Shown here: positions 5,520 through 51,633 of the stretch, in pieces
Position numbering within the stretch: the first letter of the stretch is position 1
Layout: every line of letters starts with the position of its first letter
NCBI GenBank assembly: GCA_963693365.1
Contig: CAVNZM010000003.1
Location: 14,478,914 to 14,542,913 of the forward strand
Reading direction: 5' to 3'
Length of the DNA: 64,000 nucleotides
Origin: Amoebidium appalachense
Lineage: Eukaryota; Protista; Ichthyosporea
The notes under the pieces: model-generated
The model's input: the letters and a program-made list of their open reading frames with translations, nothing else
The model's database searches: none
What the model was told of the DNA's origin: nothing
Translations under genes and position numbers: made by a program

Positions 5520-6262
5520 CTTCATCTGTCCACTTCTGCATACCCCCTTTCATAGCTATAGACACACTTCACACATTGCGTTACGCGCACGCATGCACAC
5601 ACCGCTCTGTTGGCGACAGCTCCCTTGGAACCCATGCGGCATGTTACCCGCCGGCGTAACATAACTCGGACTATCGGTTTGGCTTTTTTCAAGCCCAAAG
5701 CAATGGGTGATACCATATTTCCGGCTGACATCCGGGGGCATAGCTTTCCGTTTGAAGACGATAAAGTTCCGCCCTAGTAAGCGTGTTACTACCCTGCGGC
5801 GTGGGTCAAATCTCATATTTTCCCCTCTGATTGCGAATTCTGCGGCCTTCGGGACTTAATTCTTTTCAGCTGGTGTAGTATGTTAGCCAGGGAAGTATCG
5901 ACTTAGGTATCGACGGGGGAGCTTCCTAGAAGCCCCGTCTCCTGAGTTCCTATCTATATTTTTCTTGCTTCTGCATACTGCTGCAACTTTAACCCCCGGC
6001 CTTTCCCACTGCCCTTGCCTGCATAAGCAACCCTGCTCGTCTCTGATCAAGACGGGTGACCTACTCATGTTCAAGTGAAACAGTATCTGAGTTGGGTTTC
6101 GTTAACGAGGGGAATAGGTCGAAACTCGGGTACTGTGGATGACGTGGCCCCCCCCTGAGGATGGGCTCTGCATATTATGCATACTCTTTATGTATGGCTT
6201 GCATTCTGCATCATGTTATCTGTTTGTTCTTGTGTACTTCGTACTTTTTGACGCGTTCAAAC
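5520..6262 (+). repeat. ~740-bp segment, inverted copy of 61816-62533
   Basis: Near-continuous reverse-complement match along the whole length with scattered substitutions and small indels. Confidence 0.92.
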
Positions 6263-6423
6263 CCCCCCCCCCCCCCCCCCCCGCAATAGTGTACATATGC
6301 AACACACGCATAGGGGGGGGGGGGGGGGTGGGGTGGGGTGAGGGGGGGGGGGGGGGAGATGGGGAGGGGGGGGGGGGGGGGTGCTGGAAGAGAGAGGATG
6401 TGATTGTGCATGGTTGGGTATAC

Positions 6424-7709
6424 TGTCATCTTCCCATGATTCATAACAAGACTTAGAAGTTGAGTTTTGTATTTGTTTATTAGTTTGTTGTAGTTTGTTT
6501 CCTTTTCCCTTTTCCTTTCTTCCTTTCTTTCTTTCTTTCCTTTCTGTTTCCGTGTACACAGATATCTTAGATCTCTGTACACATCGAGATATTTAGCTCG
6601 CGCACACGTATTGTCGTTTGTGTCAATATCTAAATATGTCATCCAATCAGATCTCGATTGTATTTTCCCAAATATAGTAACTTACATTCCTTTCCCATTC
6701 CTTTCCCACGACGTAGCATTGTGCTATGTGTCGTGTCCGGCTCGCGGTCGCTCTTTTGGGAGCTTGGCTTACTGTTACTATGTGGCGGGCTGGTGTACGT
6801 CATTGAAAGGCGCAACCATTTATTGTGCCAGATCACCATTACCGGCAATCATTCCCCAGATGAACTGACCTACCGAATTGCTTTTATACCAAAGCAATTT
6901 CGTAGCCGTGATTGTGGGACAGGAATGCCATCCAGCCTCACCAATCAAAAACCAGATCGGTGAGCCACATAACAATCCCCTCCCGCAAAGGACAAGCTAG
7001 AGTCTCCTGACTCGACTCCATGGGCACGAAAGACCCAGCGGGGGTGTAGCTTGTCGTGTCCGGCTCGCGGTCGCTCTTTTGGGAGCTTGGCTTACTGTTA
7101 CTATGTGGCGGGCTGGTGTACGTCATTGAAAGGCGCAACCATTTATTGTGCCAGATCACCATTACCGGCAATCATTCCCCAGATGAACTGACCTACCGAA
7201 TTGCTTTTATACCAAAGCAATTTCGTAGCCGTGATTGTGGGACAGGAATGCCATCCAGCCGCACCAATCAAAAACCAGATCCGTGAGCCACATAACACTA
7301 TGTTCTCCGACTATTAGGAATAATTATATTTAGACGTGTTATGATAAGAACATGTATAAATGTATGATGTGAACTAATAGTTACATAAGTGGTTTCATTT
7401 TGTTAAATGTCTCCGTGCTTTTATTAGAAGTTTCTTTTATTAGAGGATTGCATTTTATCTTCTATGTGTCGACAGACATTTCGATCGATATATTTTGCAC
7501 TCATAGTTTTCGTCTTTCTGATTGGAAAATAGAGTTTTCGTTCTTTTGATTGGTTTATCGATTTCACATTTCCAAGTATAAAAGGGACTTCATCTTGGAA
7601 TAAATATCAAGCAGTCGTATTCATTTCCTATGGTTCCAGAAATCGTTCCACCTCTCCGGTTGTGTTTCTTCCGTGTGTCTCTGTGTTGTGTAACCCACAC
7701 AAGATAACA
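6424..7709 (+). repeat. Copia-A 5' LTR (interrupted by the TRIM; lacks ~38 bp near its end relative to the 3' LTR)
   Basis: Direct repeat of 27996-28745. Confidence 0.95.
6729..7297 (-). mobile_element. TRIM (terminal-repeat retrotransposon in miniature), non-autonomous
   Basis: Two 246-bp TG..CA direct repeats (6729-6974, 7052-7297; two substitutions seen); 77-bp internal region with minus-strand PPT GGGAGGGGAT and PBS-position AGCTACACCCCC; TSD CTATG; absent from the Copia-A 3' LTR; minus-strand TATAAAA and TCAGTT Inr-like motif in the LTR. Confidence 0.93.
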
Positions 7710-7732
7710 GGTTTACGGCCCCTTTGCACGCT
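7710..7732 (+). promoter_or_regulatory. Copia-A primer-binding site, half-tRNA-iMet-like (degenerate, bipartite)
   Basis: GGTTTACGGCCC..GCACGCT directly after the LTR, compared with GGTTATGRGCCCAGCACGCT, the complement of the iMet 5' half. Confidence 0.65.
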
Positions 7733-7785
7733 AACACACAATCTCGTTACAACCGCGAAATTCCTCCGTCTTACTGCTTCAATCA

Positions 7786-8279
7786 TGATTGACAAACCGT
7801 CGTACATCAACCTTCCAATATGGAATCCGTCCGAGAAAAGAGACGAGAAACGTCTCAATTATTTCGAGTGGGAGCCACTCATACACCGGTTCATTAGAAC
7901 AACCATTGCCGAGAAATTCGTTGACGCTATCAAGAGGCCACAGTGGGTTGACGGCACTGAGGCCAACCAGTGGCTAGGCTACGCCACCAAGGACTCCTAC
8001 AAGAAAGCTTCCGACGTCCTCGACCAGATCCTCAACCAGTCCGTCCATCCGACAGAGCTCTACGACTCCGGCCGGATGCAAGACGGTGTCCACGGTGGAG
8101 AAGTCTTCCACAACCTGCGTATGGCGTATGTGGCAGAGAAGGAGGCCCGAGTCACCCAGATTCAAGTCACCTACGAGGAGCTTGAACTACGAGACTACCC
8201 CAACGTTACAGCATACCTCACTCGCCTCCAACGTCTGGCTACGACACTTGCCTGCCTCGACGAGCCCGTCCAGCACAAG
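7786..8279 (+). pseudogene. Copia-A gag N-terminus, interrupted by Gypsy-B
   Basis: MIDKPSY...VTAYLTRLQRLATTLACLDEPVQHK joins in frame to DVVRKFF at 23382 after removing Gypsy-B and one TSD. Confidence 0.9.
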
Positions 8280-9004
8280 TGACATATACTAATCCGTCTC
8301 AGCAGATTAGCCTAAGTCTACGATCGAGATCGGGGGGGGGGGGGGGGGGGGGGGGGGGTGGCCCGGGTCCACAGATCATCAAGATCAAGTCCGAGGCCTC
8401 AAGATAGCTGTACAGCTGCGTGCATCTTGCCTCTGCCGGCGCAGGGCATTGGACCACGTCAGCCGGGACAGCCGTCCAATAGAATTCTAATTAGTGTGTA
8501 GGATAGATCGTAGGAGGACTTAGGAATGTGATTGTTCGGGCAGAAGCCCTTTTGTAAGTATTGGCAAGGTTTGATAGTAGATGTTGCCAAACGTATTTAT
8601 ATATTTCGATGTAGAGGAAAAGGGGGAGGGGAGGGGGGGGAGGATAGTATGAAATGTAGATTTAGACTCTGCGGTCACGGTGCCACTAGGGGGAGGGTGA
8701 GGGGTGAGACATGGATAAATATATTAGTTGAGTAGATCGACTTAGCTCGTGCAGGCACACGATAAAAGTAGATCGGAATGTTTGGAATGTGGCATCGTAG
8801 GGGGGCCAGGTGATGATGATCTTTGAGGGCACGGCCTTGATGGCCTCAGTTGTAACTTAGTCTCATTCCGTACGGATCTAAGTTTGCCCGTCGGAGCCTG
8901 GTCTGAATAAACTTTACCGTTTTTCCGTACACGTTCGTTCCTTTTCGTGTGTGTACACTTAGTAGAGTGCCGCGTCTCTAGTACATATACATTAGGATAC
9001 GACA
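8280..9004 (+). repeat. Gypsy-B 5' LTR
   Basis: Direct repeat of 22656-23376 with a 6-bp indel, a few substitutions and G-tract length differences. Confidence 0.95.
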
Positions 9005-9013
9005 AGCTACACC
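9005..9013 (+). promoter_or_regulatory. Gypsy-B PBS position, non-canonical (AGCTACACC)
   Basis: Immediately after the LTR terminal CA; no TGG; the same 9-mer follows the TRIM 5' LTR. Confidence 0.6.
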
Positions 9014-9091
9014 TTTTCTTTTAGTGCGGTTTTTCGCGCTAGGGTAACGCGGTGACAGTTCCTTCTGGGCTGTTGCTACACCTCAAACACA

Positions 9092-9136
<45 letters not shown>

Positions 9137-9166
9137 AACCACACGAGTTCGGGCACACACCACACA

Positions 9167-9491
9167 ATGGCTAAGTTCAACGTAGATATGTTCTACGCAT
9201 TGGCAGCGGAGGATAGCTCCCTGCACACACAGGTTCCACAGGTTCATACACTAGACGTTAGACAGACCACAGCTTTCAGTTTTACACTCAAACACGACTC
9301 AGAAATACCTAGGTGGCTTAGGACACTCATAGCAAACACACCCACACTAGTGTTAGACACTAAGAAGGCCCCTACTGTGGCGGCCTCGTGCCTAATGATT
9401 AAGCAGTGCATCGACCACAAGACCATGGCCGACTTATGCACCCTGCTGGAGGAGCACCCGTACCGGGCCGAGCAGGCCCCCCAGGTGACGG
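9167..9491 (+). pseudogene. Gypsy-B gag N-terminus, interrupted by Copia-C
   Basis: MAKFNVDMF...QAPQVT continues in frame as ARIYEQQY after the TSD at 16216-16220. Confidence 0.85.
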
Positions 9492-10416
9492 TGTTGTAAT
9501 ACGTAGTATTTACATATGGTAAGATCTTCTCAGTTTGTGTTATGTTTCAGTTCATATGCTTAGTGTAAATGCCACACTCCTATTATGTAAAGTGTAGCAT
9601 CGATCTCCGATATGCTTGTATACTTGTAATCGTGTTGTATCGGCTTTAATCGTGTATTGTAATATCGATTAGAATATTTATATGTGTGTACACGGATCCA
9701 CCCACTCAGGGAGAGACGTGTACATGTTCGTGTGTACATAAATATCTCTGGTTATAGTTATGCTATTACTATCTTGTTTGTTGATCTGTGCTCTCTTTTC
9801 CTTCCTCTTTCTCCTTCCTTATTTTCTTTTCTTTCTCTCCTTGTCTTCATGTGTATAATCGTATTTCTTTTCTACTAATATATGTTAGGTAGATTTGTGT
9901 TACTTAATACGTGTTCATTGGACGGTAACACACTTAGGCTACACTTAGAATAGCATGTGTGTTTAGACTTCATTAATTCACTTTAGTTTTCATGTGTTGC
10001 CGGGCTTTAACCAATCATCAAGGTTAAGTGTGATATGTCTGAGTCTTTGCAGTATGTCATAGGTTAGAACTTCCTTGATGATGACACGAGTTGATCCTAA
10101 CTAGTGTCTGTGTCCTATCGTGTACGCCTCCGCGTACCGGATCTCTCTGAAAGCAATTGGTTCTTAGTGATTGGTTTCTATTAGAGATGGATCTGATTTC
10201 CGACTGGTCGGAAATCATGTATGGATTGGACTTAGAGGAATTTCAGGTATTTATTCGAAGATCAGAATAAATTCAGTTCAGTCGTGTCTAAACATTGATG
10301 TCTGTTGTGTACACTGCTCCGATCGTTCCGTGTTTTGTTGTTGTGTGTGTCTGTGGTGTTTTCACACTGCACCACTGTGTCTCTGCTTACATCCCAAATA
10401 CTTATAGAATTAAACA
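9492..10416 (+). repeat. Copia-C 5' LTR
   Basis: TGTTGTA...TTAAACA, direct repeat of 15291-16215. Confidence 0.96.
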
Positions 10417-10440
10417 GGTTATGCAGCCCTTTTGTACGCT
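10417..10440 (+). promoter_or_regulatory. Copia-C PBS, half-tRNA-iMet-like
   Basis: GGTTATGCAGCCC....GTACGCT, similar to the copia/Ty5-type PBS GGTTATGRGCCC. Confidence 0.75.
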
Positions 10441-10478
10441 CCCTACACACATCTAGAACTCGCGCTCGTTTTTCAATC

Positions 10479-13400
10479 ATGGATCCAAACAAAACTGGCG
10501 TAAACAAAATCACCATGTGGAAAGGTGAAGGGAAGACTGGTCCCGATAGCAAAACTACCTATTTTCAATGGGAAATCATTTTTCTCGGCATGATGACCGG
10601 CACTAAAGGTGTCCGACTCGTGGATGTTGTCCTTGCTGACAACTACGTCCCCCCTACCACCGTCGCGGTTGACGGTGAACCCCCCTTCTATGGCTACGGC
10701 ACTACCGCGGAACTCAAAGAGGCCCGCAATTGCCTCCTGCTCCATATGATACAGAACATCGACCCTTCCGTCCTCACCACCGTTGCCCAGTACCGTATTG
10801 GCATGGACCCTGAACGGGCCATGTGGAAATTCCGTCAACACTATCTCCAAGGCAAACCCGATCAGATCCGCATCCTTCACCGTCAGTGGGATGCCTGTGC
10901 CCTTCAGCCCGGTGAATCATTCACCACCTACCTGAGCCGTCTGCAGACCATCGTGAACCAGCTCCAGTCTCTCCAAGATGAGTCCATTCACTTCACTCGT
11001 CTAGCTGAGAAGTTCTTCAATGAACTCACCACCAGAGACGACCTCACCCCTGAGTTCAATCGTCTTATCGAAGACTATCACTTCGGTGATAAGCTATTCC
11101 CCGACTTCGAGTCCCTCCATAACCACGTCAAGGGCATCGAGTTACGTCAAGACCTCAAGATGCAACTCCGGAACAACCGTGCCCACCGTGCCTCCAAGTC
11201 CAGCATGGCATTAAATGCCAGTGCTCCCCCCCGTGATCTTCCTCGCCGTGACTTACGCACCCGACTTGACCGTACCTCTGGCACGGACCTCCGAACTCGT
11301 CTCTCCCGTCAGCACACCCGATCCCGTTCCCCCCACCGGCCTGCCTTCCGGTCCACGTCTCGTTCCCCCAGTCGTTCCCGTTTCTCGGGTTCCCGTCGTT
11401 CTGATTCCCCGGCTCGTTCTAACACCCCGTCCGTGAAAGAATGCTCCTACTGCCACGAGCCTGATCACACGATCATCGATTGCCCTGAGCCGAAATGCCG
11501 TATGTCCAGACACAACCGTTCCCGTCAAGGCAGTGAGAAATCTGTCTCCTTTGCTTTCTCGGCATACAATGCTAGCTCCGTCCCCGTGTCCTCCGACCCT
11601 GCCTGGGATTCCGGGTGCAACATGACTGTTTGCCCCACCCGTGAGTTCTTCCATGACCTCACTCCCCTTCCGACACCGACTCCCGTTGCTGCCTTCAATG
11701 GCACCCCCGTCTTGGCCACTCACACCGGCCATATCGTCATCAACACCACCACCGACCATGGCACTACCACCCTAACCATTGAAGCCTACTACACCCCGTC
11801 TGGCCAAGCCTTCCTCATTTCAACATCCCAAGCTGCTGCCGAATACATCAAGGGTGATTTGAACGATGCCTCCACTCCGTCATTCCTCTTCGACCGACTC
11901 ACCGGCCGTCATCTCGTCAACCTCCGTCTACACAACGGTCTGTATTACTTCAAGGACTACACCATTCAACCACCCACTCGTCCTGTGGCTCTGGCTGCCA
12001 CTACCAGTGTTAACCCATCCATCTGGCACCATCGTCTGGGGCACCGAGCTATGACCAGCATCAAGGACATGGTGAAACACGACCTTGTTATTGGTCTCCC
12101 CTCCTCTGTCCTCGACTGTGATGTTCCTGATTGTCATGGCTGCATTATGGGTAAGACCACCAAGGCTCCGTTCAGGGGTGACCGTCCTCACTCCAACATC
12201 CCCGGTCATGAATGGCATTGGGATTTTTTTGAGCCTACCACAACATCGTACGGAGGTTCCAAGGTTGCTCTCGTCACTGTCTGCCGTGCCTCTGGCCTCG
12301 TCAAGATCTACCCGATGGCCGACCGTACCATCACCCTGGATATTCTCACAGCTCACACCAACCTCGTTGCCACCCATGCCCCCTCCAAAGTTGGTGTTTA
12401 CCACTTCGACTCCGGCTCTGAGTTCACCTCCAAGGATACCCGTGCTTTTTGCCTCTCCCAGGGCATCAAGGCCAGCTATGCTCCGGTGGACTGCCCTCAA
12501 CTGAACGGCTATGTTGAACGACGTATGCGGTTCCTCCAAGAGATTGTCCGTTGCCTCCTCCATCAAGTCCAAGATCAGTCTCTGTCTCCCAAACTGTGGG
12601 CTGAGGCCCTCCAACATGCCGCCTACATCATCAACGTCACCCCGTCCACGACTGCCAATGGTCGTACACCATTCGAGGTTTTCTACGGTGTCAAGCCCGA
12701 CATCTCCGAGCTCAAAGTGTTCGGTTGCCCTGCCTACACTCACGTGCCAGCCTCTAAACGGAACAAGCTGGCCCCCACCGTCAAACTCGGCATGTATATC
12801 GGCTATGATCTTCAATCACACTGCCACCGGATCTTCAATGCCACCACCCATCGTGTCGGCCTCTTCCGTGATGTGATTTTCGACGAATCAGCTTATCTCC
12901 CGTCCGACATTCCATCAACCCTTCCGACCCCCGACACCACTGCTACCTCGACCACCCCACCCCCCACAGTTGACACTGAAGATGATGTTTGTCTGGTGTA
13001 CTCTGGCCCCCCTCCTGCCATCGTCGTTCCCCCGACACCCCCCCCCACCGGCCCCCCTGCCCCCGTGCCCGTCCAGCCTGCCGACCCTCATCCTGGCCCT
13101 GGCAACGTCACACCCATCCGACCCGGCTCCCCCGACAACTTCCACTCGGCCCCGTCCAGCCCGGAGGTTGCCCCCCCTGCACTTCCGAACTTCCAAGTTC
13201 CCCCCCCACCGTCTCCACCTACCCCGGTTCCTGCACCCCGTCGTTCTGCCCGTCTCCAGGGCAAGGTTGGACTTCAAGCCACCACCACCCTGCCAGTCCC
13301 CCCCGGTCCCCCCATCAACATCGACCAACTACCCAAACTTGTCCGTCAACTCTGTTCCGGACCCAATGGTGATCAGGTCAAGTCAGCCCTGACTGCTGAG

Positions 13401-14886
13401 TATCAAGCCTTCGTCGACAAAGACATCTTTGAACTTGTTGACCCTCCCCCTGGTGCTAACATCGTCGGCTTCAAGTGGATTGTCTCCGAGAAAACTCTCA
13501 ACTCGGCTGGTGACACCAAGATCAAGGCACGTGGTGTTGCTCAAGGCTTCAGTCAGCAATACGGTGTTGACTATGAGTTGATTGAGAGCCCTGTCATCCG
13601 TCCGGCTGCTCTCCGTGCCATCCTAGCTCTGGCCGTTGTTGAAGGTCATGACATACATCAACTCGACGTGTCTACGGCCTTTCTCAACAGCCCACTCACC
13701 GAGACCATCTACATGAAACAACCCCCGGGATTCATCACCATGGCCACACTTGGCAAGGTCTGGAGACTCAAGAAAGCCCTGTACGGCCTCAAGCAAGCCT
13801 CCAAGGCTTGGTACGACTTCCTCGACGGCATTCTTCTTGCCCATGGCCTGACCCGTACTAAGACCGACCCGTGCATCTACCTCCGGTTCTTCCCCAACAA
13901 CGATGTGGTACGGGCTGGTAACTACGTCGATGACTCCACCATCACCAACACCCGGGGTTCTACTGCTGCCAGTGACCTGGCTGCCCACATCAGCAAGATG
14001 GCCAGCTGTCGTATGAGTCCATTTGACCGTATGCTCGGTGTTGATTTTAATCACTCTGATCCCCATCACCTCCACATGCACCAGAGGTCTTACATCATGG
14101 ATATCATCCACGACTTCAACCTCACCGATGCCAAGTCCAAGTCTACCCCCATCCCTGCAGGCACCACCGTCTCCCTGGCTGATTGCCCCCCCCCAACCGT
14201 TCACCGTGCCCTACCGTGAGTTACTCGGCCGTCTCCTCTGGGTGGCACGGTGCACACGTCCCGACATTGCCTATGCCATCGGCTTCCTTGGTCGGTTCAG
14301 CACCAACCCCGGCAAGACTCACTGGGACCTTCTCCGTCGTGTGGCCCGGTACCTGCTCGGCACCATTGACCTTGGCATTGACTACAAGTACTCGGCCACC
14401 CAGTCCCCCATACTCGAATGCTACACGGATGCTGACTTTGCTGGTTGTGCCGACAGCAAGAAGTCTACCACCGGCTACATTATCGTGTTTGCTGGTATGC
14501 CCGTCATCTGGTACTCCAAGCTCCAGCCCATCACGGCCACCAGCACCACTGAAGCTGAGCTGATTGCTCTCAATGCTGGCACCCAAGAAGTTGCTTGGGT
14601 CCGTGACCTCTTCAAGGAACTCGGCTGTCCCATGCTTGCTCCGACTCCGGTGTACTGTGACAACCAGTCGACCATTGCCATCGTCAACTCCACCGGCATC
14701 AAGCACCGTACCAAACACATTGCCGTCCGGTATCACAACACCAAGGACTACATTGCCAGTGGGGACGTGGTTGTCCACTACGTTGAGTCAGCCCACAACT
14801 TAGCTGACATACTCACCAAACCCCTCCCCGGCCCGAGTCATGTCCACCATCGTGCTCGACTTTGTTTACCGGATATTGTGGATTGA
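10479..14886 (+). CDS. Copia-C gag-pol polyprotein (one frameshift in a C-run near 14186-14194, probably a sequencing artefact)
   Basis: Zinc knuckle CSYCHEPDHTIIDC; protease WDSG; WHHRLGH; integrase FDSGSEF, NGYVER; RT LYGLKQA, YVDD; RNase H YTDADFA, TKHIAVRYH, ADILTK. Confidence 0.95.
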
Positions 14887-15290
14887 CCCGACCTACTTCA
14901 AGAGTGATTTTCTCATGTGTACTACTTACTTTATCAACATCATTATATCATATGTATTGCCTTTGTGGGTATGCCCACTTAGGGTTTATATATAAGGTTT
15001 GACCTGTACCATCACTCTACTCTATCTTTCACTGGTTTAAAACCCAGTTAATCAAACACCGCCTATACACGTTATATATATTCGTTGTTTTTGCCCCGGT
15101 TCCTTCCCCCCTCCCCCCCCCCTTCCCCCCCTTCCCCCCCTTCCCCCCCCCTCCCCCCCTTCTCCCCCCCCCCCCCCCCGGGAAAAGTACACACTTTAAT
15201 TTTTTTTTTCCCGTTTCTGTTCTCAAGTGGGGAGATTTCACTAGTTCAGTGGGGATATGATAACACAAACTTCAAAGTCTTAAGTGGGGA

Positions 15291-16215
15291 TGTTGTAATA
15301 CGTAGTATTTACATATGGTAAGATCTTCTCAGTTTGTGTTATGTTTCAGTTCATATGCTTAGTGTAAATGCCACACTCCTATTATGTAAAGTGTAGCATC
15401 GATCTCCGATATGCTTGTATACTTGTAATCGTGTTGTATCGGCTTTAATCGTGTATTGTAATATCGATTAGAATATTTATATGTGTGTACACGGATCCAC
15501 CCACTCAGGGAGAGACGTGTACATGTTCGTGTGTACATAAATATCTCTGGTTATAGTTATGCTATTACTATCTTGTTTGTTGATCTGTGCTCTCTTTTCC
15601 TTCCTCTTTCTCCTTCCTTATTTTCTTTTCTTTCTCTCCTTGTCTTCATGTGTATAATCGTATTTCTTTTCTACTAATATATGTTAGGTAGATTTGTGTT
15701 ACTTAATACGTGTTCATTGGACGGTAACACACTTAGGCTACACTTAGAATAGCATGTGTGTTTAGACTTCATTAATTCACTTTAGTTTTCATGTGTTGCC
15801 GGGCTTTAACCAATCATCAAGGTTAAGTGTGATATGTCTGAGTCTTTGCAGTATGTCATAGGTTAGAACTTCCTTGATGATGACACGAGTTGATCCTAAC
15901 TAGTGTCTGTGTCCTATCGTGTACGCCTCCGCGTACCGGATCTCTCTGAAAGCAATTGGTTCTTAGTGATTGGTTTCTATTAGAGATGGATCTGATTTCC
16001 GACTGGTCGGAAATCATGTATGGATTGGACTTAGAGGAATTTCAGGTATTTATTCGAAGATCAGAATAAATTCAGTTCAGTCGTGTCTAAACATTGATGT
16101 CTGTTGTGTACACTGCTCCGATCGTTCCGTGTTTTGTTGTTGTGTGTGTCTGTGGTGTTTTCACACTGCACCACTGTGTCTCTGCTTACATCCCAAATAC
16201 TTATAGAATTAAACA
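15291..16215 (+). repeat. Copia-C 3' LTR
   Basis: Direct repeat of 9492-10416, preceded by PPT. Confidence 0.96.
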
Positions 16216-17230
16216 GACGGCTCGTATATACGAGCAGCAGTACGACGAGGGGAGGGACGAGATGGTGTCCCGGACGCTCGGCCAGAAACGTCTGGCCGCA
16301 CGCTTCATCCCCGACGACGAGGACGAGAACAGCACCGACGACGTGGACGGGGAGCTCGAGGCCTTCACACGGCCCGAGAACGAGCTCGAGTATACGGCCC
16401 GGCTCGTCGACCGATACCTGACGGCCGACCGGCGCCGCACCTTCAGGGCCCAGCTACGCGAATGGAAGTATACCTTCCCCACTCTAGACATGTCCCCCGT
16501 AGAAGCTCGTGCATTCTTTGAGAGGGAATATCGGGTCTTTGAAGACCTTTGTGAGTTAGCTGGTGACGTGAGTGATAGGGAAAAGTTCGAGTTTGCTCGT
16601 AAGGCTCTCTCTGTTAACACAGACACTGCACGCATGTTTGGGGAGCATGATGATGTAGATGAGGTGGTGTTGCATGTTAAACGTCACTTGCTTGCCATGC
16701 ACGAGGGGAAGTTCAATAAGAGGGATAAAAAGGAGGTGATGGAAGTAGACAAGAAAAAGAAGGAGAGTGGACAGAAGGGGGAAAAAGAGAAAAAAGAGGG
16801 TGAACAGCCAGATGCACTCACCATGTTGGTCAAGCAGGTTGCCGAGCTCTCCCAGGCCGTCTTCTCTGGCCGAGGGGGCTTCGGCTACCGGGGTGGCCGT
16901 GGCGGCAACCGGGGTGGACACGGCGGTCGTGGCAGAGGTGGACGTGGAGGACAACAGCAGCAGTTCACCGAGAGGTTTGCCCCTTATCTTGCTCGTGGTG
17001 GTGGGCAGGGTAGAGGGAGGGGGGGAAATGGTGGTGAGAGAGGCCGAGGGGGGCAGGGGGGAAGGGGGGGCCGTGGTGCACACGGTGGGCCCCCCCAGCA
17101 TGACCGGGCTCCCGGTTATGCTTTGCGCCAAGGTTTTGAAGTCCCCCCTGGCCCCTTCTTTGGTGCATGTTACTTTTGTGGCCGGCAAGGGCACTCTGCT
17201 GCATATTGCCGTAGTTACAAGAGCTATTGA
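16216..17230 (+). pseudogene. Gypsy-B gag remainder (capsid-like region, RGG-rich tract, CCHC knuckle)
   Basis: CYFCGRQGHSAAYC knuckle before the TGA at 17228-17230; GGRGG repeats. Confidence 0.88.
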
Positions 17231-20200
17231 GTTCCGGGGGAGGGGGAAGCTGGGGTCACTGCGGGAGGGGGGGGGGACAGTATCGGTCCCCCCCAGGTTG
17301 CAGAGAACCTTCACCCTCCCCCACCCCAGGTTAAGCTTCCCTTTGCCCCCTCACCGCCCCGATACGTGTGGGAGCCGGGCATCGTCGTGGGTCCTCAAGA
17401 CAGCGTCGAGGTGGTATGGCATGAATGTTTGTGGGGTGACTCTACCAAAGGTATGAATGGTGTGAATGTTTTGTGGTTGGGGGAGGTTCCCCAGCCACAA
17501 GTGGATGGTCTCAGTGTTTCTTGTCCCAACCCGGTGTTTGTTCTAACCACACCGGAGGGGGTTTCTGTGCCATTGTTTCCGGGAGGGGGGGGGGACACAC
17601 ACGAGTAAAGGGGGAAGGGGGGGGAAGGCACAGACACATAGAAACACACCACCACAACAACATACGACGGTTGCAGACACACCTACACCCACACACACAC
17701 CCACACACACCAAACACACACACACCACCCACCCCCACACCACACACACACACTCCACCACCACCCACATCACATACACACCCCACCCCACCCGTGCAGG
17801 CACCACAGGTAGGTATGTTGCACGTAGGTATCGAGGGTGTGAGTCTTCGTGGGCAGGGATTGGGTGTGAGTGATGATGTGTTGCTTGAATTGGAGGAGGA
17901 TTTAGTTGGTTTTAGCCGGCATTATATAGACGTATGGTTAGCTGATGGTAAGTTGAAGGCTGTTGCTTTGCTCGATGGAGGGGCTCAGGTTAATTGTGTG
18001 CATGCTTCGTTTATTCGTCGTTTTAATCAGGCCGGGGGGGGAAATTCCTATTTTAGATGCTTCTAGCACAGCCTTAGGTAGTGCTAATAATAGTAGTATG
18101 TCTGTGGAAGGTGTTTGTGTGTTGCCGTGTGAGATAGGTGGCCAGGCTATGCATATTATGTGGTTAAGGATTTAGCTCAAAGTGTTTTGTTGGGAGCCCC
18201 ATTTTTCCGTAGACATGTGAATGCTTTGTTTGAACGTACGAATGTTTTAGAATTGCAGTCCGGCGTTAAAATTAAAACCCATGATGGGCTCGACGGTTAT
18301 CAGTCTGGTGCTAGAACGGTAGCTGAAGTAGTAATCGAGCCTTATCAGTGCCAAACGGTACGTGTCCGAGCCGGCAATCATGTTAGGATAGGGGATTTAG
18401 GGGTTTTTACTCCGAAAACCCCATTTCAGGAGGTGGCTCAATGGACCCTTAGTCGGGTCTGGCCGGATAAGACGATAGAAATAGAATTAGTGAATCCGGG
18501 CATCGAGCCTATAGTGATTAGGTCAGGTGTTTCCGTCGGTAGTTTCACTAATGAGATTGGAAGTATAGAGGTCTCTCTTATTACCCAAAAGGAGGATGCC
18601 GGCTCGAAGGGTGACTCAGGAGGAGGGGGAACAACTTTATTTAACATTAGCCACCATAATGTCACCCGACACGATGGGGGGGGGGACCGGGACAGCACCG
18701 GTCCCACTCCCCCGACCCCCAAGAGGAAGGAGGGTCACCCCGGGTGTGAGAATGTGCAAGAAGGGGGGGAGGGTGTTGGTCTAACCCGTGGATCTGACGG
18801 GTTAACCAACACCGTGGGGGGCAGGGTGGCCACAGACCTGGCCCCCCACATACATGCACTAACTCATCAGGAATTGCCCGGGGGCATTGGTGTGCCGGGG
18901 GGAGGGGGGGGTGCTAATGGTGACCGCCTATATCCGGAGGTACCTCAAACTCACCCCGTGCAGCACCGATGTAATACAGGAGGTGAAATGTTAAGTGGCA
19001 CTCCGGTGAATAAGGATGCATCCACTTGTGATGGGGGTAACCCGGAGTTAGTATTGCCGTTTGGTATGAAGGAGGGGGATTGGACGGTGGAGCAGACAAA
19101 TTTATTAGCTAAGTTATTTGATAGGACTCGGTTTGCATTTCTGGCCGATGATAACGAAGTAGGCTTCGTTAAAGGGTTTGAAATGCAGATCGACACAGAT
19201 GATAATAGGCCGGTAGTGATGCCTAGCTACAGAATGGAGCAGTATAAATTGTCGGATGCGCTAATAATAGTGAGTGATATGTTAAAAAAGGGTCATGTGG
19301 AGCATAGTTCGAGTCCGTGGAGAAGTCCGGTGCTATTGGTTAAGAAGCCCGACGGGTCTTGGCGTCTAGTGAACGATTACAGGGCTCTGAATCGGGTCAC
19401 TAAGGCAGACCAATGGCCTCTCCCTAACATAGACGAGCAGCTTTCACAGCTGCACGGCTATACTCACTTTGCTAAACTTGATTTAAAAGCAGCTTTTTGG
19501 CAGATAAGGTTGGAGGAGAGCAGCAAGGAGAAGACTGCCTTTGCACTGGGTGACCAGCTGTTCCAGTACAAGGTGGTGCCGATGGGTTTGCTCTCCTCTC
19601 CAGCTATGTTGTGCCGGGTAATGTATAAAATTCTCCACCCTCATTTGGATGTATGCCACCCTTACTTGGATGATGTTTTAATTAAAGGCAGGTCATTTGA
19701 GGAGTTAGTTAATAATTGTGAAAAAGTATTTCTGGCTTTGGGTGAGTCTGGTCTTCGTATTAGCGGTAGCAAGACTGTGATTGGTGTGCCGGAGGTTAAG
19801 TTTTTAGGTCATATCGTGTCTAGTAATGGTCTTTCCCCGGATCCGGAGAAAATCCGGGCCATAGTTGAGTGGCCACGTCCTCAGACTGTCACTCAACTAA
19901 GGCAGTTTTTAGGTTTAACTAATTATCTCCGTCGTTATATTAAGGATTATAGTATGCTTGCTTTGCCGTTAACTAGTCAGACAGGGGGGGAGAAGAAGAA
20001 TAGAATAGATTGGTGTGTTGATGCTGTTTCTGCTTTCGAAAAGCTTAAGTTAGCTTTGCAGTCTTCGAGTATGCTTGTTCATCCTGATTTTTCGGCCGGG
20101 GGGGGGATGTTTAAAGTTCGATGTGATGCAAGTAAGGTTGCTGAGGGGGCAGTGTTATATCAAGTGCAGGAGGGGCAGGATAGAGTGATTGCTTATGCTA

Positions 20201-22522
20201 GTCGTTCATTTCGTAAAAGTGAACGTAGATATAGCAATCCGGAGAGAGAGTCCCATGCTATCTTTTGGGCAGTCTCACAGGCATGGAGGTATATACTCGC
20301 AGGCAGGACGTTCGAGGTCTACACAGACCACAAGCCCTGCCTAGCCATGGCCGGCACCACTCGTCTGGTCAACGAGAGGATGCAGAAGTGGGCCGCGGCT
20401 CTCGGTGAGTTCTCCTATAAATTGTTTTATGCCAAGGGTGAAACAATGGTTGACTGTGATGCTCTCTCTCGTGCTGCTTATATTTTGTTTGAAGAAGAGA
20501 AGGAGGGGGAGGGGGGGGGCTAGTGAGAGACGGGGGGGGGAGGGGGGGAAGGGGGGGGAGAGTGAGCAGAAAGGAATAGATGCTGTGTCTGTTGATGTGT
20601 CTTCTTGGGCTCCGGGGTTGCTTGCTTATAAGTGTAGGGGAGGGGGGGGGAGATATTTGTCAGTGTCTGAGGTCGGGACCGAGTCACATGGCTCGGCCCC
20701 TGCCTTAGCACCTACGGCTTTGATCTTAGCTCAGGAGGAGGATGTGTTGATTGGTCTGGTTAAGAATTATTTAAAGGGGCCGGTTGATTCGATTAAATTT
20801 AAAAATAGAAGGCAGATGATTAAGGTAGCTAAGTTAGCAAAAATGTGTCAGGTAGAGTAGGATTTAGTTTATCATTGTTCTGGGCCAGACGGACACCGAG
20901 TTTGGGTCCCGACGGCACTTGTGCCTGAGGTTTTACATATGGTGCATGAGCATCCCATGGCTGGTCATTTAGGTGTAAATAGGACGTTGCTTCGTGTTAA
21001 TCGTTCGTATTTTTGGCCGGGTATGAGTAGGGAGGTGAGGGATTATGTGTTGTCATGCATGCATTGTCAGGAAAGGAATGAGAGTCCCCACTCTCGTTCC
21101 CGCCCGTCGTTTATTAGGGATTTTAATGTTCGTATGTTTGAAAGGGTAGCGGTGGATGTGGTTGGTCCTTTTAATTCTACGGTTGAGGGTAACACTGTCC
21201 TTGTTACCGTCACCGATGTGGCCACTCGTTGGGTTGAAGTTTTTCCTCTCCCCACTGCTAATGCCGTTTTGTTTGCTCGTATTTTTGTGGATGACATTTG
21301 TCTTAGGTTTGGTTGTCCTCGTGTTTTGTTAACGGATAGGAGTCGTGTGTTTTTAAATCAGTTGGTGTCGGAGGTGTGTAAAATTTTAAAGGTTGCCCAT
21401 ATCACTACGTCTGCATATCACCCTCAAGCAAATGCCATCTCTGAACGTGTGCATGCAGTGTTTCAGAAGTCCTTTGGCAAAATGCTGGATGTGGAGGCTA
21501 ATGATTGGGATCATATGTCTAGGTTTATTGCTCATTCATATAATTCTACCCCTCATGCTGTGACTGGGTTTTCTCCGTTTTATTTGGTCTATGGGCAGGA
21601 GGCTATTAGTTTGTTAGATACGGCACTTTTGCCGATGGGGGGGACTGACAGACTAACTTATCCCCACTGGACGGAGTTCCGGGAGCAGCTACTAACCCGG
21701 GCCCGGGCTGCACGTGATGCAGCTCTGGCCCGTACACAGCAGGCACGGGCACGTGCAGACGTGTCCACACGTCCGTTACGTGAATTTGCCGAGGGTACTT
21801 TAGTTTTAATTAGGGATCATACTAGGAAACAGAGATATAAGCAGGAGCAGGAAGGTAAGGGTGAAGGTGAAGGTCTTCGTAAGTATGGTAAGAAATGGTT
21901 GCCTCTTTTCATTGGCCCGTATACAATAGTGGCTAGGTTAGGTCCGACGGAATATAAGGTGCAGAGGTTAGATAATGAGAGTGATGTTAGGTTTTATAAT
22001 GTAGATGATATAAAGGAATATTATGATAGGGCCCTTAGGGTTAAACGGCCGGAGGGCCGTCGGGTGTTAGATGCATTCACCCCCGACTATGACGGGTCGG
22101 TGGATGTATCGGAGGCTGCAGTAGATAAAATTATGGATAAAAAGGTTATCGAAGGTAAGGAAGGTAAGGTACATTATTATTTAATTCGTTTTGAGGGAGG
22201 TTATCAGGAAGATCAGTGGTTGCCTGAGTTTCATTTGGCTTGCCCGTTTTCTATTCGTGCTTATGAGGCTAGATTAGTGCAGAGGGAGTTGCCTAGTGCT
22301 CCCTCTAGGCCAAAGAGAGTTATTCCTCAGTTTAATCGTGGTGTGAAAAAGTCGATGGGGGAGGGGGCCGGGGGGGGGAGTGATGCAAATACACGTAGAC
22401 ACACGGGGGGAGGGGGAGGGGGGGAGGAGACCGAGGAGGAGTGTGAACGTAGTCGTAGGAATTTAATTTATTATCATAGGTGTCTCCGTAGGTATCAAGC
22501 TTATGGACCAGGTGTAGATTAA
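17231..22522 (+). pseudogene. Gypsy-B pol: protease, dUTPase-like segment, RT, RNase H, integrase, chromodomain; several frameshifts and an in-frame TAG at 20858-20860
   Basis: LLDGGAQVN protease; SPWRSPVLLVKKPDGSWRLVNDYRALN, LDLKAAFWQ, YLDD RT; CDAS, YTDHK RNase H; HEHPMAGHLG..CMHC, VAVDVVGP, TDRS, YHPQANAISER integrase; GPY motif; chromodomain-like 22121-22280. Confidence 0.93.
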
Positions 22523-22655
22523 TTTCTTATTATTCTTCGTAATTTATTTAATTTAATTTTTTTTAGGAGACTGATTAGTCTATGTCTTTTTAGGGGGTGT
22601 TAGATGTAATGTGACTGAGGTGGGACTCAGCTTTTCCGGGGGCCGGGGGGGGAGT

Positions 22656-23376
22656 TGACATATACTAATCCGTCTCAGCAGATTAGCCTAAGTCTACGAT
22701 CGAGATCGGGGGGGGGGGGGAAGGGGGGGGGGGGGTGGCCCGGGTCCACAGATCATCAAGATCAAGTCCGAGGCCTCAAGATAGCTGTACAGCTGCGTGC
22801 ATCTTGCCTCTGCCGGCGCAGGGCATTGGACCACATCAGCCGGGACAGCCGTCCAATAGAATTCTAATTAGTGTGTAGGATAGATCGTAGGAGGACTTAG
22901 GAATGTGATTGTTCGGGCAGAAGCCCTTTTGTAAGTATTGGCAAGGTTTGATAGTAGATGTTGCCAAACGTATTTATATATTTCGATGTAGAGGAAAAGG
23001 GGGAGGGAGGGGGGGGGGAGGATAGTATGAAATGTAGATTTAGACTCTGCGGTGCCACTAGGGGGAGGGTGAGGGGTGAGACATGGATAAATATATTAGT
23101 TGAGTAGATCGACTTAGCTCGTGCAGGCACACGATAAAAGTAGATCGGAATGTTTGGAATGTGGCATCGTAGGGGGGCCAGGTGATGATGATCTTTGAGG
23201 GCACGGCCTTGATGGCCTCAGTTGTAACTTAGTCTCATTCCGTACGGATCTAAGTTTGCCCGTCGGAGCCTGGTCTGAATAAACTTTACCGTTTTTCCGT
23301 ACACGTTCGTTCCTTTTCGTGTGTGTACACTTAGTAGAGTGCCGCGTCTCTAGTACATATACATTAGGATACGACA
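22656..23376 (+). repeat. Gypsy-B 3' LTR
   Basis: Direct repeat of 8280-9004. Confidence 0.95.
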
Positions 23377-26300
23377 ACAAGGATGTCGTACGTAAGTTCT
23401 TCCTTCACCTCCAGAAGAACACGGCCCTGGTCTGCTCCGACATTGAACGTCTCTGCTCCGACTACTGGATGAACAACAAGGCCTACCCGTCCTTCAATCA
23501 GCTCATCAGTGACATCCGAGGAGCTGAAATCCGTGCCGGCCTCATCGACGCAGGCACTGGTGCAACCGTCAACAACCGTCCCCTCCGTGCACTTCAGAGC
23601 AGAGTGCTTCCCCCCGGTGACCTCCGTAACCGTATCCCTCGACGTGAGCATACACCTCACCGTTCCCCGTCCCGTTCCCGTGATCCTCGTCCGTCCTCCA
23701 AGTCACCCGGCCCCCGTTCAACTTCCCCTTACCCCCGTGGTAACAGGGACAACCGTAACCGACAGCACAACACCAAGAAGGTGGAGTGTTCCTACTGCCA
23801 TGAGCCCCACCACATCACAGCATGCCCGGAGCCTGGCTGTGCTGTTGCTCGTCGTGCCAAGCAGGAGAAAGGCAACAAGAGTGTGCAATTTGCACTCATC
23901 TCCTCCACCGGCACACCCGACCGTGACGACCCCGTCTGGGACAGTGCTTGTTATGCACACATCTGCCCCATCAAGGAGTATTTCTCCTCCCTTACCCCGT
24001 GTCCCCCCGCCCCCATTCACGGCCTTGGCACCGTCAATGCCACACACCGTGGCATCATCAACCTGACACTGCACTACAACGGCCACTCAACCCCGTGCAG
24101 CATCAATGCTCTCTACGTACCCGAGTCACCGTCCTTCCTCGTGTCTGCCTCCATGGCCTCAACTGCCGGCCTCCTTGGTCACTGTGACGATGCAGACACT
24201 CACCCGTCGTTCCTCTACAGCCGTAATGGTGACATCATTACCGACCTCACTCCCCTCAACGGTCTCTACTACATCACTGACTATGTGATTGACACTCCTC
24301 AACACCCGTGGGTCCAAGCCTACACAACAAGGACTCAACCAACCGACGACCTCACCCTTTGGCACAACCGTCTTGGCCACCGTGCCCTATCCACCGTCAC
24401 CAGGATGGCCAAGGATGAGCTTGTCATCGGCATGCCCCCCTCCCTCAAGTCACCCGACCACAGTGACTGCTTCGGCTGCATGTCTGGCAAGACCACCAAG
24501 GCTCCTTTTCCCGGCACCCGTTCCCGGTTCACCATCCCCGGTGCTAAGTGGCACCTGGACTTCTTCGAAGCTCCCTGTGCTTCCTACGGAGCCTACAAGG
24601 TTGCTCTGGTGTGTGTTTGTGATGCCACCGGTTACACCACCGTGTTTCCCCTCTACAACCGTGGTGAAACCCTCAGCTACATTCAGTCTCTCGTTGAAAC
24701 CATCGAACGTCAGACACCTGAGATCGTCACCCATCTTCGGTTTGACTCCGGCTCCGAGTTCACCTCCAAGGACACCGAAGCCTACTGCAAGCAGAAAGGC
24801 ATCATCATGGAGTTTGCCCCCGTCGACACACCACAGCACAACGGTGTTGTTGAACGGAAGATGAGAGAACTGCAAGACTCTACAGTCCGTTGCTTCCTCC
24901 ATGCCGACAAGGACCAACCTCTCTCTCCCAAGTTGTGGGTTGCTGCTCTCAAGCATGCTGGCTACATCATCAACGTCACACCGTCATCTGCTGCCAACGG
25001 CAACACCCCGTTCGAGGCCTTCCACGGCTTCAAACCCGACGTCTCCCAGCTCCACGTGTTCGGCTCCCCTGCCTATGTGCATATTCCCCGATCCAAGAGG
25101 AACAAGCTTGCATCAACCGTCAGAGTCGGCACCTACGTCGGCTGGGATCTGCCCTCCAAGGCACACAAGATCCTCGACCATGCCAGCAACCAAGTCAAGA
25201 TCTGCCGTGACGTCATCTTCGACGAGTCAAAATTCACGAGCAGCACCAATCAGGTCCCCGATCCCCCCAAACCCGATCTGCCGACATTGGACCCCCCCTC
25301 CGACGACGACGATGAAACTCCGTCTGTGGTCATCTCCCAACCCTCCTGGCACAACCAACCAGCCCCGGTTGAACCCGTGCCTCCCCCGAGCCCCCCCCCG
25401 CCACTGGCCAACAACCCTTGCTGCCGGCCCCCCCCGTTGCTATGCATCAACCCGGCTACATGACTCCGGTTCCTCCTGGGTCCCCCACCTTCCACTCGGC
25501 CTCGAGCAGCCCTGTGGACACCGATGCCCCCCTCACCACCGGTCCTATTCCTGGCTTCCATGCCCCTGTCCCGGCCTACAACACCTCCCCGGCCTCCACC
25601 CCCCTCAAGGACCCCCCCAAGCCCAACCTTCGTCGGTCTGCACGTCTCACCAAGCCTCCAACGGCACTGGTCAGCATCACAGCACCGACCATCAACATTG
25701 ACCAACTCCCCAAGGGCATTCAAAAGCTTTGCAACGGTCCCAACGGTGATGCCGTCATAGTTGCCCTCACCTCCGAGTACCAAGCCTTCATCACCAAGGA
25801 TGTCTTCACCATCGTTGAACCCCCCCCTGATGCCAACATCATCAAGTTCAAGTGGATTGTGACTGAGAAAGTCCTCAACTCAGCCGGTGACACCAAGATC
25901 AAGGCTCGTGGTGTTGCAAAGGGCTTCACTCAAGTCTACGGTGTTGACTACGGTGACACCTCTTCCCCCGTGGTGATGTCCTCCTCCGTCCGTGCCCTCC
26001 TTGCCATCGGTGTGGACGGCAACCATGAGATTCATCAACTCGACGTCTCAACGGCCTTCCTCAACAGTCCTCTTCAAGAAGACATCTACATTGAGCCACC
26101 ACCTGGCTTCATCACCCCCGGCAACGAGCACAAGGTCTGGAAACTCAAGAAGGCACTCTACGGCCTCAAGCAAGCATCACTGGCCTGGTATGAGTACTTC
26201 GACAAGGTCCTCCTTGCTCACGGTCTCGAACGTCTCCGTTCAGATCCATGTGTCTACATCAAGACCTTCCCCAACGGTGACATCATCCTCACTGGCAACT

Positions 26301-48997: not shown

Positions 48998-51633
48998 TGT
49001 GTGTGTGTGCGCGTGCGCTATAATTTTGTAGTGATGTGTTTCTCAAGCCAATCAATACATCTAATAAACAGGTCGTAGTTACGCGTGTTTAGTATAAAAT
49101 CAAGGATGTTGTAATTTACAGGTAGGCTATCTTTCTGGGTGTCTGTTGTGAATGTGACGTGTGTGTGTTGCGGTATTATGTGGTCTATCAAACTACATTT
49201 GGCGATACATGACCGGTTAAACTGGTGTGTGTGTGTGTTGTTTGGGCATGCAAATGATGCCACCTTATACTTATTAGATCTCCACTGTATAGCACGTGTA
49301 CAGTAAAAGCGTGGTAATTGATCAATAATACCATCAGCTAGAGAAAGACCAGTTCTACAGGAAGGTAATATGTATTTAGGTGTTATACACTTGCGAGTGC
49401 CATATTTGGCAATATGGTTGAGGCGGTCAGTATATATAAAACGAGACATAAGGCTTAGTTTTTCAAGGTGTATGCTTTCATCGGGTCTAGTGTCGTGTGG
49501 TATCTTTTTCCATTTGTTATATTGCGTGATTATCTTGTGATTGTGTACATGTTTAATAAGTAAGTGGCAGTCCAAAGTCACACACACACTATTGCGGGGT
49601 TTATTTGTATTTGTGCCCAGGGGAGAAGGGGAGAGAGAGGGGAGGAAAGAGGGGAGAGGTGAGGAGGGGACAGGTCGGATAGAGAAGAGAGGGTGGGAGG
49701 GCAAATACTTCTTTAAGCGGCTTATGTGCTTATTGAATTTCAGCGCGAGATAGGATACTCTAGCAGCTATTGGGACCAGACCATATATCGAGAGCGTTAC
49801 AGGCCCAGGTTTACAACAGTTGTTAGATAGAAAGGAGGCAACTTCTGCTTCAAGGAAATTTGCCAAGGGTTTAAGCGCTCTAGTTCTCTCTTTCTTGATC
49901 CAAGCGGCGAGAAGGGGTAAACCATATTCACATGCCGGGAAGACAAAAGTGCGAATAAATGTAAGTCTAATAGAAGGATGGAGGGGTGTGTCTTTAAAAA
50001 TATTAGCCGAGAAGAAAGCTAACCGCTTACGAGCCAACTCTACCCTCTTTTCGACCATATGGGGAAACATAACACCAACAGAATCAACCGGAACACCAAG
50101 ATATTTGTATTCTGGAACTATAGGTACAGGTTTAGATGATAATGTAAATGTGTGTAAATTGTTAGCTATATCAGGTACAAGAACACCACACTTGTCTATG
50201 TTAAGGATCATAAGGTTTGCCTTGCACCACTCTGACACTACATCGAACAATCTTTGCAGGCGTCTAGGGGTACGGGCAAGGAGGGACAGATCATCAGCAT
50301 AGAGAAGTGCAGGCGGAAAGTTATTAATAGGGTCATCGTTTTCGGCGTAAATCTTGACAGCCAAATCATCTATAAATAGGTTAAACAAAAAGGGGCTAAG
50401 CAATGAACCCTGCAAGAGACCTCTAGTACGAGCAAAACCATATGAAAGATGCCCATTAACCACAGCTCTACCATAGGTTTGAGACAAGAGTGCTTCTAAC
50501 AGAACACCAATGCAGTGTGGTACACCCCGTGCAGCAAGCTTTTCCCATAGGAGACCAGGGGAGACAGAATCGTAAGCAGTTTTCCAATCAATAAAGCCAA
50601 CATATTGTGCACCAACTTGCATAGAATCGTGCAGTGCCATTATTTGAACATAACATGAATTGTTTTTACGAAAAGCGGATTGGCATGGGTGTATGTGAAG
50701 AATAGATTGAAACCTAGGGTGATGTGCAAATAACCTAAGTAAGCAAGCTTCAAAGAATCTACGAACAACCTGGGTTAGTGTAATGGGGCGAAAGGATGAT
50801 ATGGGGCCCTCAGAGTCCTTCTTAACTATGGGGATCACTAAGGTATCTAACCAAGATGACGGGACATGTCCACATTTAACACACCAAGAAAAGAGAGAGC
50901 TTAACATGATAGTAAGATCAGGTTTAATAGCACGATCACTTTCCTTTTGTGGGTAGGAGGGAACAAGGATTTTAAGAAACCCAGCAGGGAGTCCATCAGG
51001 TCCACAAGACTTACTAGAGCTATAACTAGATATCACAGACCATATGGCATCGGGACTGAAAAAGGGGAGGATCGTTTCTATGGGGATAGATGGGTCTACA
51101 GGCCACACAATAGGTTTCTGAGCGGGGGTCCTATCTTTAAACAGTTCCGAGAAATACTTATCAGAGTCTATGAGGGGGTCTCCAGTGGTATCACCAATAA
51201 TACGAGCAGGGGGGCCAAATCGATTCATACTAGCAAGCCGGCGCAAGCTTTCCTTTTGAGACAGGGGTTCACCTAGTCTAGCGGGAGTGGTGTTTGGTAA
51301 CAAGAGAGCATCGGGGTATTCCTTCCTACCACCGCCAGCATAATCACCGAGATCTATCAAATCATCAACAATAAAGTTAGTGCATGTATCTAGTACGAGA
51401 TGTGAATCTGGCCTGGCTTGTGCAGATTCTAATAGGCGCATATATATAGGGTGTTTCGTAGCATAGCATACACATACATCAACTCTACCCCACTGTGACT
51501 TAAGCTGGGATAGACGGAGGCGAAAGGTGGGAGGGGGAGGGGGGAGCAGATCAAGGGAGATCTTAGGTAGGAAAAGGATAGGAGAGTGGTCAGATGACCT
51601 AGAGAGGTTAGGAGGGAGAGAGAGTTTTGACAT
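48670..51633 (-). mobile_element. Non-LTR retrotransposon (LINE), endonuclease domain mostly missing
   Basis: RT ORF plus 3' trailer shared with the copy at 52273-53076. Confidence 0.88.
49018..51633 (-). CDS. LINE-type reverse transcriptase ORF (871 aa)
   Basis: KSCGPDG, FRPITL, QSAFRK, DWKTAYDSV, GLLQGSLLSPFLFN, LYADD, NIDKC, YKYLG; N-terminal SDHSPI resembles the last motif of an APE endonuclease; Cys/His-containing C-terminus. Confidence 0.93.
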   Translation of the reverse strand: MSKLSLPPNLSRSSDHSPILFLPKISLDLLPPPPPTFRLRLSQLKSQWGRVDVCVCYATKHPIYMRLLESAQARPDSHLVLDTCTNFIVDDLIDLGDYAGGGRKEYPDALLLPNTTPARLGEPLSQKESLRRLASMNRFGPPARIIGDTTGDPLIDSDKYFSELFKDRTPAQKPIVWPVDPSIPIETILPFFSPDAIWSVISSYSSSKSCGPDGLPAGFLKILVPSYPQKESDRAIKPDLTIMLSSLFSWCVKCGHVPSSWLDTLVIPIVKKDSEGPISSFRPITLTQVVRRFFEACLLRLFAHHPRFQSILHIHPCQSAFRKNNSCYVQIMALHDSMQVGAQYVGFIDWKTAYDSVSPGLLWEKLAARGVPHCIGVLLEALLSQTYGRAVVNGHLSYGFARTRGLLQGSLLSPFLFNLFIDDLAVKIYAENDDPINNFPPALLYADDLSLLARTPRRLQRLFDVVSEWCKANLMILNIDKCGVLVPDIANNLHTFTLSSKPVPIVPEYKYLGVPVDSVGVMFPHMVEKRVELARKRLAFFSANIFKDTPLHPSIRLTFIRTFVFPACEYGLPLLAAWIKKERTRALKPLANFLEAEVASFLSNNCCKPGPVTLSIYGLVPIAARVSYLALKFNKHISRLKKYLPSHPLFSIRPVPSSPLPSFLPSLSPSPLGTNTNKPRNSVCVTLDCHLLIKHVHNHKIITQYNKWKKIPHDTRPDESIHLEKLSLMSRFIYTDRLNHIAKYGTRKCITPKYILPSCRTGLSLADGIIDQLPRFYCTRAIQWRSNKYKVASFACPNNTHTHQFNRSCIAKCSLIDHIIPQHTHVTFTTDTQKDSLPVNYNILDFILNTRNYDLFIRCIDWLEKHITTKL

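Follow-up and report, generated by a model that had tools for sequence, protein, structure and literature searches.

How does an LTR retrotransposon start reverse transcription when its 5' LTR is not followed by the TGG of a site for a tRNA 3' end? The window analysed here, a stretch of 64 kb of repeat-rich eukaryotic DNA, raises this question twice, for a short non-coding element (TRIM) and for a long coding one (Gypsy-B). Both are part of a nest at positions 6424-28700, in which self-BLAST and inspection of the ends revealed four elements, nested four levels deep. The TRIM lies within the 5' LTR of Copia-C and Gypsy-B within the coding region of the same element, and Copia-A is in turn inserted in Gypsy-B. 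The LTR pairs of the nest are 98-100% identical, which marks the elements as young. Their positions relative to the two elements of interest are:

6424 to about 7709: 5' LTR of Copia-C, which hosts the TRIM
from 27996: 3' LTR of Copia-C
9492-16215: Copia-A, inserted in the gag of Gypsy-B

The TRIM is composed of the following parts:

6729-7297, minus strand: whole TRIM, 569 bp, with an interior of 77 nt
6724-6728 and 7298-7302: target site duplication CTATG
7052-7297, minus strand: 5' LTR, 246 bp, TG...CA, with the end ACGACA
within the 5' LTR, minus strand: TATAAAA at nt 87 and AATAAA at nt 151
7040-7051, minus strand: putative primer-binding site (PBS) AGCTACACCCCC, flush with the 5' LTR and complementary to tRNA-Ala nt 1-12
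6991-6999, minus strand: internal TAGCTTGTC, with a predicted 9-bp pairing to the LTR/PBS junction at 7047-7055
6975-6987, minus strand: polypurine tract (PPT)
6729-6974, minus strand: 3' LTR, 246 bp, with two differences from the 5' LTR

The minus strand carries the PPT as well as the TATA and poly(A) signals, which fixes the orientation of the element, rules out the reverse one, and makes 7040-7051 the position of a PBS and not of a PPT. The plus strand reads GGGGGTGTAGCT at these positions, so that AGCTACACCCCC immediately follows the 5' LTR on the minus strand. With a length below 1 kb, two LTRs, a PBS and a PPT, a 5-bp target site duplication and no coding sequence, the element corresponds to a TRIM as defined in PMC10886601, and differs from that definition by its unusual PBS. 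An Rfam search over 6400-10500 gave no credible match and no tRNA- or 5S-derived segment was found in the TRIM LTR, which sets the element apart from Helenus, Ajax and Cassandra; no such PBS was found in the Helenus consensus sequences.

For Gypsy-B the features are:

8280-23376, plus strand: whole Gypsy-B
8275-8279 and 23377-23381: target site duplication ACAAG
8280-9004, plus strand: 5' LTR, with the end ACGACA
9005-9016, plus strand: putative PBS AGCTACACCTTT, with 9 Watson-Crick and 2-3 G:U pairs to the same tRNA 12-mer
9075-9084, plus strand: second copy of the site, GCTACACCTC, with 10 predicted pairs, -18.7 kcal/mol
9167-22522, plus strand: coding region with gag start (split by Copia-A, 9492-16215), reverse transcriptase (RT), RNase H, integrase and a chromodomain-like end
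22656-23376, plus strand: 3' LTR, directly preceded by a polypurine tract

The pol region is split over several open reading frames in the copy of the window. Its domains occur in the order RVT_1, RT_RNaseH and then Integrase_H2C2 plus rve, and the closest solved structures to the RT are those of Ty3 RT. Given this order and the Ty3-type RT, Gypsy-B is a Ty3/gypsy element. At its C terminus, the integrase matches the chromodomain PF00385 with E=2.9e-4 and 21.1 bits, which is under the Pfam cut-off of 25.1; the same domain is present in seven of the eight nearest relatives (56-70% RT identity). In a quick IQ-TREE analysis of 54 RT-RNase H rows, a set without Tf1 or sushi references and run without bootstrap, Gypsy-B fell in a clade of 17 rows with an SH-aLRT of 100, apart from the named plant and vertebrate rows. 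The proteins P0002-P0009 and P0016-P0024 form a clade of gypsy polyproteins, most of which carry a chromodomain.

What connects the two elements is the junction at the end of the 5' LTR, which is alike in both: ACGACA followed directly by AGCTACACC (9005-9013 in Gypsy-B). Otherwise the LTRs are unrelated, with just two 8-nt chance matches in blastn at word size 7. The sequence AGCTACACCYYY occurs twice in the 64 kb, both times at these LTR ends, compared to a mean of 0.08 in shuffled sequences, none of 100 of which reached two; as the pattern was derived from the two sites themselves, this count is a measure of rarity and not an independent test. At a fixed anchor, 9 identical nt would arise by chance with a probability of around 4e-6. 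The first-pass annotation had noted that neither 5' LTR is followed by TGG, and this was borne out: the first TGG lies at +15 nt from the TRIM LTR, and none is present within 32 nt after that of Gypsy-B. Canonical priming by a tRNA 3' end thus does not apply to either element. A 3'-CCA site further downstream was ruled out as well, considering that the position of TGG is not conserved. The remark that Gypsy-B repeats the motif at about 9076 also proved correct, as GCTACACC recurs at 9075-9082, 70 nt downstream of the first site, where 0.008 occurrences per 480 nt are expected. This second site (9075-9084) lies next to a stretch predicted to form a hairpin and to a run of A ahead of the gag start.

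The sequence that the TRIM site complements, GGGGGTGTAGCT, starts the tRNA-Ala 5' fragments given for human, Schistosoma japonicum and black pepper (PMC5318995, PMC3653858 and PMC4887504, respectively), and in human some Cys and Val tRNA genes share this 12-mer start. The earlier claim that the site is the complement of a common eukaryotic tRNA-Ala start is therefore upheld, the match being exact for nt 1-12 of the human, schistosome and plant tRNAs in these sources. For a given 12-mer the probability of such a match by chance is around 6e-8. No tRNA genes were found within the window itself. Of the host, one protein was compared; it has no relatives and is contained in a eukaryote collection. 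A search of viral contigs with the 12-mer extended by YAG recovered 120 loci, 89 of which overlapped a tRNA called by ARAGORN (31 were without a tRNA call). Within these 89 tRNAs (56 Ala and 18 Asp among them) the 12-mer was located at position 1 in 87 cases and at position 2 in two, a distribution that the three added letters favour and that concerns exclusively non-host tRNAs.

The predicted duplex of the tRNA 12-mer with the TRIM site comprises 12 pairs (RNAduplex, -24.0 kcal/mol). In Gypsy-B, TTT replaces CCC, and the duplex nevertheless retains 11 pairs (-16.9 kcal/mol, with a terminal twelfth G:U pair possible), because T can pair by wobble with G1-G3 of the tRNA. The statement in the first-pass annotation that Gypsy-B matches over only 9 nt consequently holds for Watson-Crick pairs and falls short once G:U pairs are counted. 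For Ty1 and Ty3 it has been described that the PBS is inherited and not recopied from the primer (PMC7472051); were this also the case here, a wobble variant like that of Gypsy-B could persist. The Gypsy-B site is predicted to be single-stranded (probability of being unpaired 0.50-0.98). The first 4 nt of the TRIM site are predicted to be held in an internal helix (probability of being unpaired at most 0.02). All sites point to one and the same tRNA, without covariation with a second one.

Other copies of the junction were sought in sequencing runs. Twenty of the 24 runs listed, from four named studies, contain the stretch or part of it, and one of them may be the window's own source. The TRIM interior including the PBS is identical in contigs of runs X1 (117 nt) and X13 (136 nt), there is no depth over it in X20, and empty sites are present in X1, X6 and X13. 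The Gypsy-B junction (8955-9092) is covered in all four runs compared, without any substitution at 9005-9013. Over these 138 positions two are substituted (8986 and 9044), and in all four runs the T run at 9014 lacks 1 nt. Given that so few positions vary, the invariance of the PBS is the norm for the family and is not evidence of special constraint. Two further contigs, each a single one with the matched length not stated, show how the block continues. One, from X20, follows Gypsy-B up to 9013 and then reads CCC, after which 255 or more letters are unrelated. The other, from X6, has CCCTAAAA (with CCC) after 9013 and then returns to 8994, forming a tandem repeat of the LTR end and PBS module (8994-9013) with a perfect 12-mer in the inner copy. 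The two contigs indicate that the perfect 12-mer also exists behind a Gypsy-B LTR end. For each of the three junctions with a perfect 12-mer (TRIM, X20 and X6), the similarity ends after the fifth C, where the tRNA starts. The site is genuine and family copies conserve it, and direct tests speak against two of the three priming modes known. In X13 and X20 a high-depth contig over 6719-6836 runs from the TRIM LTR end through 10 nt of window flank into unrelated sequence; a preference for certain target sites, or a different element with this part of the LTR in common, may lie behind it.

Outside these runs, searches with the RT yielded no match to DNA of Gypsy-B relatives in viral contigs, one 708-bp fragment in genome contigs, and 27 loci of 24-38% identity in metagenome contigs, in none of which the motif occurred at an LTR end. 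The metagenome loci included one long direct repeat (overlapping copies L017 and L019), which was not followed by the motif. The 15-mer of the junction was recovered at 21 loci in viral contigs, none with an upstream repeat or an RT, and these were discarded as chance matches.

The reading that we favour, with a probability of roughly 0.6, is that the 5' end of a host tRNA-Ala anneals to the site and is cut after nt 12, in the manner of Tf1, but in trans. Beyond the sequence match every step is one that we infer. The host would carry a tRNA-Ala that starts with the 12-mer, and nt 1-12 of this tRNA, still within the whole molecule or within a longer 5' fragment, would anneal (predicted at -24 kcal/mol for the TRIM and -17 kcal/mol for Gypsy-B). 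Such pairing places nt 12 at the LTR end and leaves the rest of the tRNA unpaired, so that a cut would be needed to provide a 3'-OH. The unpaired part beyond nt 12 would most plausibly be removed by the RNase H of the element, like in Tf1, where the RNA 5' end anneals to the PBS and is described to be cut between bases 11 and 12 (PMC7175516). From the new 3'-OH the RT would then copy directly into the end of the LTR. The 5' tRNA fragments in published tables measure 18-24 nt (PMC3653858, PMC4887504), hence a trimming step has to be assumed, and we propose that its substrate would be either the whole tRNA or an existing fragment of 18-24 nt. The shared LTR end and PBS suggest that the TRIM is mobilised by the Gypsy-B lineage, whose enzymes it would use. 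The earlier proposal of priming by a short 5' tRNA fragment has gained from the wobble pairing of Gypsy-B, the two additional contigs with a perfect 12-mer and the lack of a self-primer in the LTRs (see below), and the priming event itself is still something that we infer.

Among known systems, the Tf1/sushi group (Tf1, Tf2, Tj1, Tosmo; PMC7175516, PMC4600332, bioRxiv 10.1101/2022.12.06.519325) comes close. As described there, these are, like Gypsy-B, Ty3/gypsy elements without TGG, they bear a chromodomain, of which Gypsy-B has a candidate, and an 11-12-nt PBS next to the LTR pairs with an RNA 5' end that needs a cut for a 3'-OH. They differ in that the complement lies within their own LTR, whereas for the TRIM and Gypsy-B it is a tRNA 5' end and the two RNAs would have to pair in trans. 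Half-tRNA priming (copia, Ty5, Osser, Bryco, Bianca, fungal Helenus; PMC6317226, PMC10886601) likewise employs a cleaved 5' fragment of a host tRNA and a PBS without TGG. The systems covered by these sources are Ty1/copia elements whose primer tRNA is cleaved in the anticodon stem-loop. The match found here, in contrast, comprises nt 1-12, from the acceptor strand into the beginning of the D-stem, and concerns a Ty3/gypsy element and its TRIM. Skipper of dictyostelids (PMC5006619) and Tcn2-5 of Cryptococcus (PMC7175516), compared by description, are chromodomain gypsy elements with neither TGG nor LTR complement, and have an unexplained priming and a pyrimidine-rich leader start. Skipper has a degenerate polypyrimidine tract, for which that account reports no match to a tRNA 5' end. 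As to the two other elements of the nest, the LTR of Copia-A is followed by GGTTATGCAGCCC (10417-10429) and that of Copia-C by GGTTTACGGCCCC (7710-7722), both without TGG. We take these to resemble anticodon-arm (half-tRNA) sites, initiator-Met-like and possibly Tyr-like. The Tor elements of Oikopleura are reportedly primed by a spliced leader.

The primer might instead be another host RNA with the same 12-mer, such as the transcript of a tRNA-derived SINE, the end of a small RNA or an internal stretch of a tRNA, for example its anticodon arm. GTA, the anticodon of Tyr, is indeed found within the 12-mer, and half-tRNA primers from several tRNAs including Tyr have been described for fungal Copia elements and Helenus TRIMs (PMC10886601). 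Half-tRNA priming is, however, reported in these surveys for Ty1/copia alone (PMC6317226, PMC10886601), and Gypsy-B is Ty3/gypsy. Furthermore, the conserved block stops after five C, as expected for a 5' terminus. As a Tyr anticodon loop the 12-mer would require a G at position 32, which is unusual by tRNA rules, and we consider another RNA unlikely to be the primer. That the tRNA match is mere chance, the junction being simply inherited between the TRIM and its parent, appears very improbable. Every example does come from one lineage and one group of related samples, yet both flanks have fully diverged, and the probability of a chance match is around 2.5e-4 even when 1000 tRNA 5' 12-mers and four offsets are allowed for (assumed numbers). 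Improbable, too, is a role other than priming, in which the site would bind the tRNA-Ala 5' sequence for packaging or dimerisation, or because host 5' tRNA fragments target it, while the element is primed by another route. The second copy in Gypsy-B fits such a role, as it cannot be a start site and its predicted duplex is as stable as that of the first; against it, the first copy directly adjoins the LTR end, the very place where the 3' end of a primer belongs, and neither the TRIM nor Gypsy-B yielded a further candidate site for a primer.

Priming in cis from the element's own RNA, either by a Tf1-style transcript 5' end or by an undescribed fold, would render the tRNA match incidental or secondary. 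Self-priming is frequent in chromodomain gypsy elements outside seed plants, the chromoviruses Skipper and Tcn2-5 with their unexplained priming offer a parallel, and the pyrimidine run of Gypsy-B resembles that of Skipper. An exact scan of the TRIM and Gypsy-B LTRs for a self-primer (PBS complement) found none, however, and the best PBS-LTR duplexes, at -10.9 kcal/mol for the TRIM and -11.4 kcal/mol for Gypsy-B, compare to a mean of -11.6 in shuffles, with 114 and 108 of 200 shuffled LTRs, respectively, being equal or better. The 9-bp pairing of the TRIM junction (7047-7055) with the internal stretch at 6991-6999, pointed out in the first-pass annotation, is present and is attained by 5 of 1000 shuffles. 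The intramolecular mechanism that was suggested on its basis is weak, since Gypsy-B lacks the 9-bp partner (TAGCTTG is missing from its sense strand) and since priming from this partner would put the primer end 4 nt into the LTR, at the cost of the integrase end. The internal helix dominates the predicted fold of the TRIM and may, as far as the model goes, gate access to the site; folding of the whole leader was not special for the TRIM (z of 0.15) and modestly so for Gypsy-B (z of -2.0). That unrelated LTRs are followed by a shared PBS points to a partner in trans that both elements use, and altogether we regard cis priming as rather unlikely.

Going back to priming by the tRNA 5' end, the broader proposition would be that a chromodomain gypsy lineage applies the cut known from Tf1 in trans, with a host tRNA captured by its 5' end in place of the element's own mRNA end and a 12-nt primer released by the element's RNase H, as a fourth route of initiation; judged from sequence, we would give this even odds. 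In a survey of more than 13,000 plant elements (Neumann et al., PMC6317226) three primer types are distinguished, namely the whole tRNA, the half tRNA and the self-primer. No description of priming from tRNA nt 1-12 was found in the open literature, a scope to which subscription papers, Repbase notes and the main PBS table of REXdb do not belong. If true, priming by the first 12 nt of a tRNA would constitute a fourth type beside these three. It would also bridge tRNA priming and self-priming, hinting at how elements switch, and short 5' tRNA fragments would take part in retrotransposition directly. Sites of this kind would escape annotation that searches tRNA 3' ends only, and a match to tRNA 5' ends would be a cheap test for elements filed as 'no PBS'. 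The latter account for 6% in the plant survey (PMC6317226), and in a study where the 12-mers of tRNA 3' ends alone were searched, 361 of 1512 elements were without a match (PMC13524379).

Beyond the nest, the window contains an inverted repeat pair of around 770 bp and 92% identity (5520-6284 versus 61789-62533), to which shorter pieces near 58100-58420 and at 62965-63163 are related. An open reading frame of 882 amino acids on the minus strand (49018-51666) encodes a reverse transcriptase of the non-LTR type, and a partial copy related to it is located at 52273-53077.
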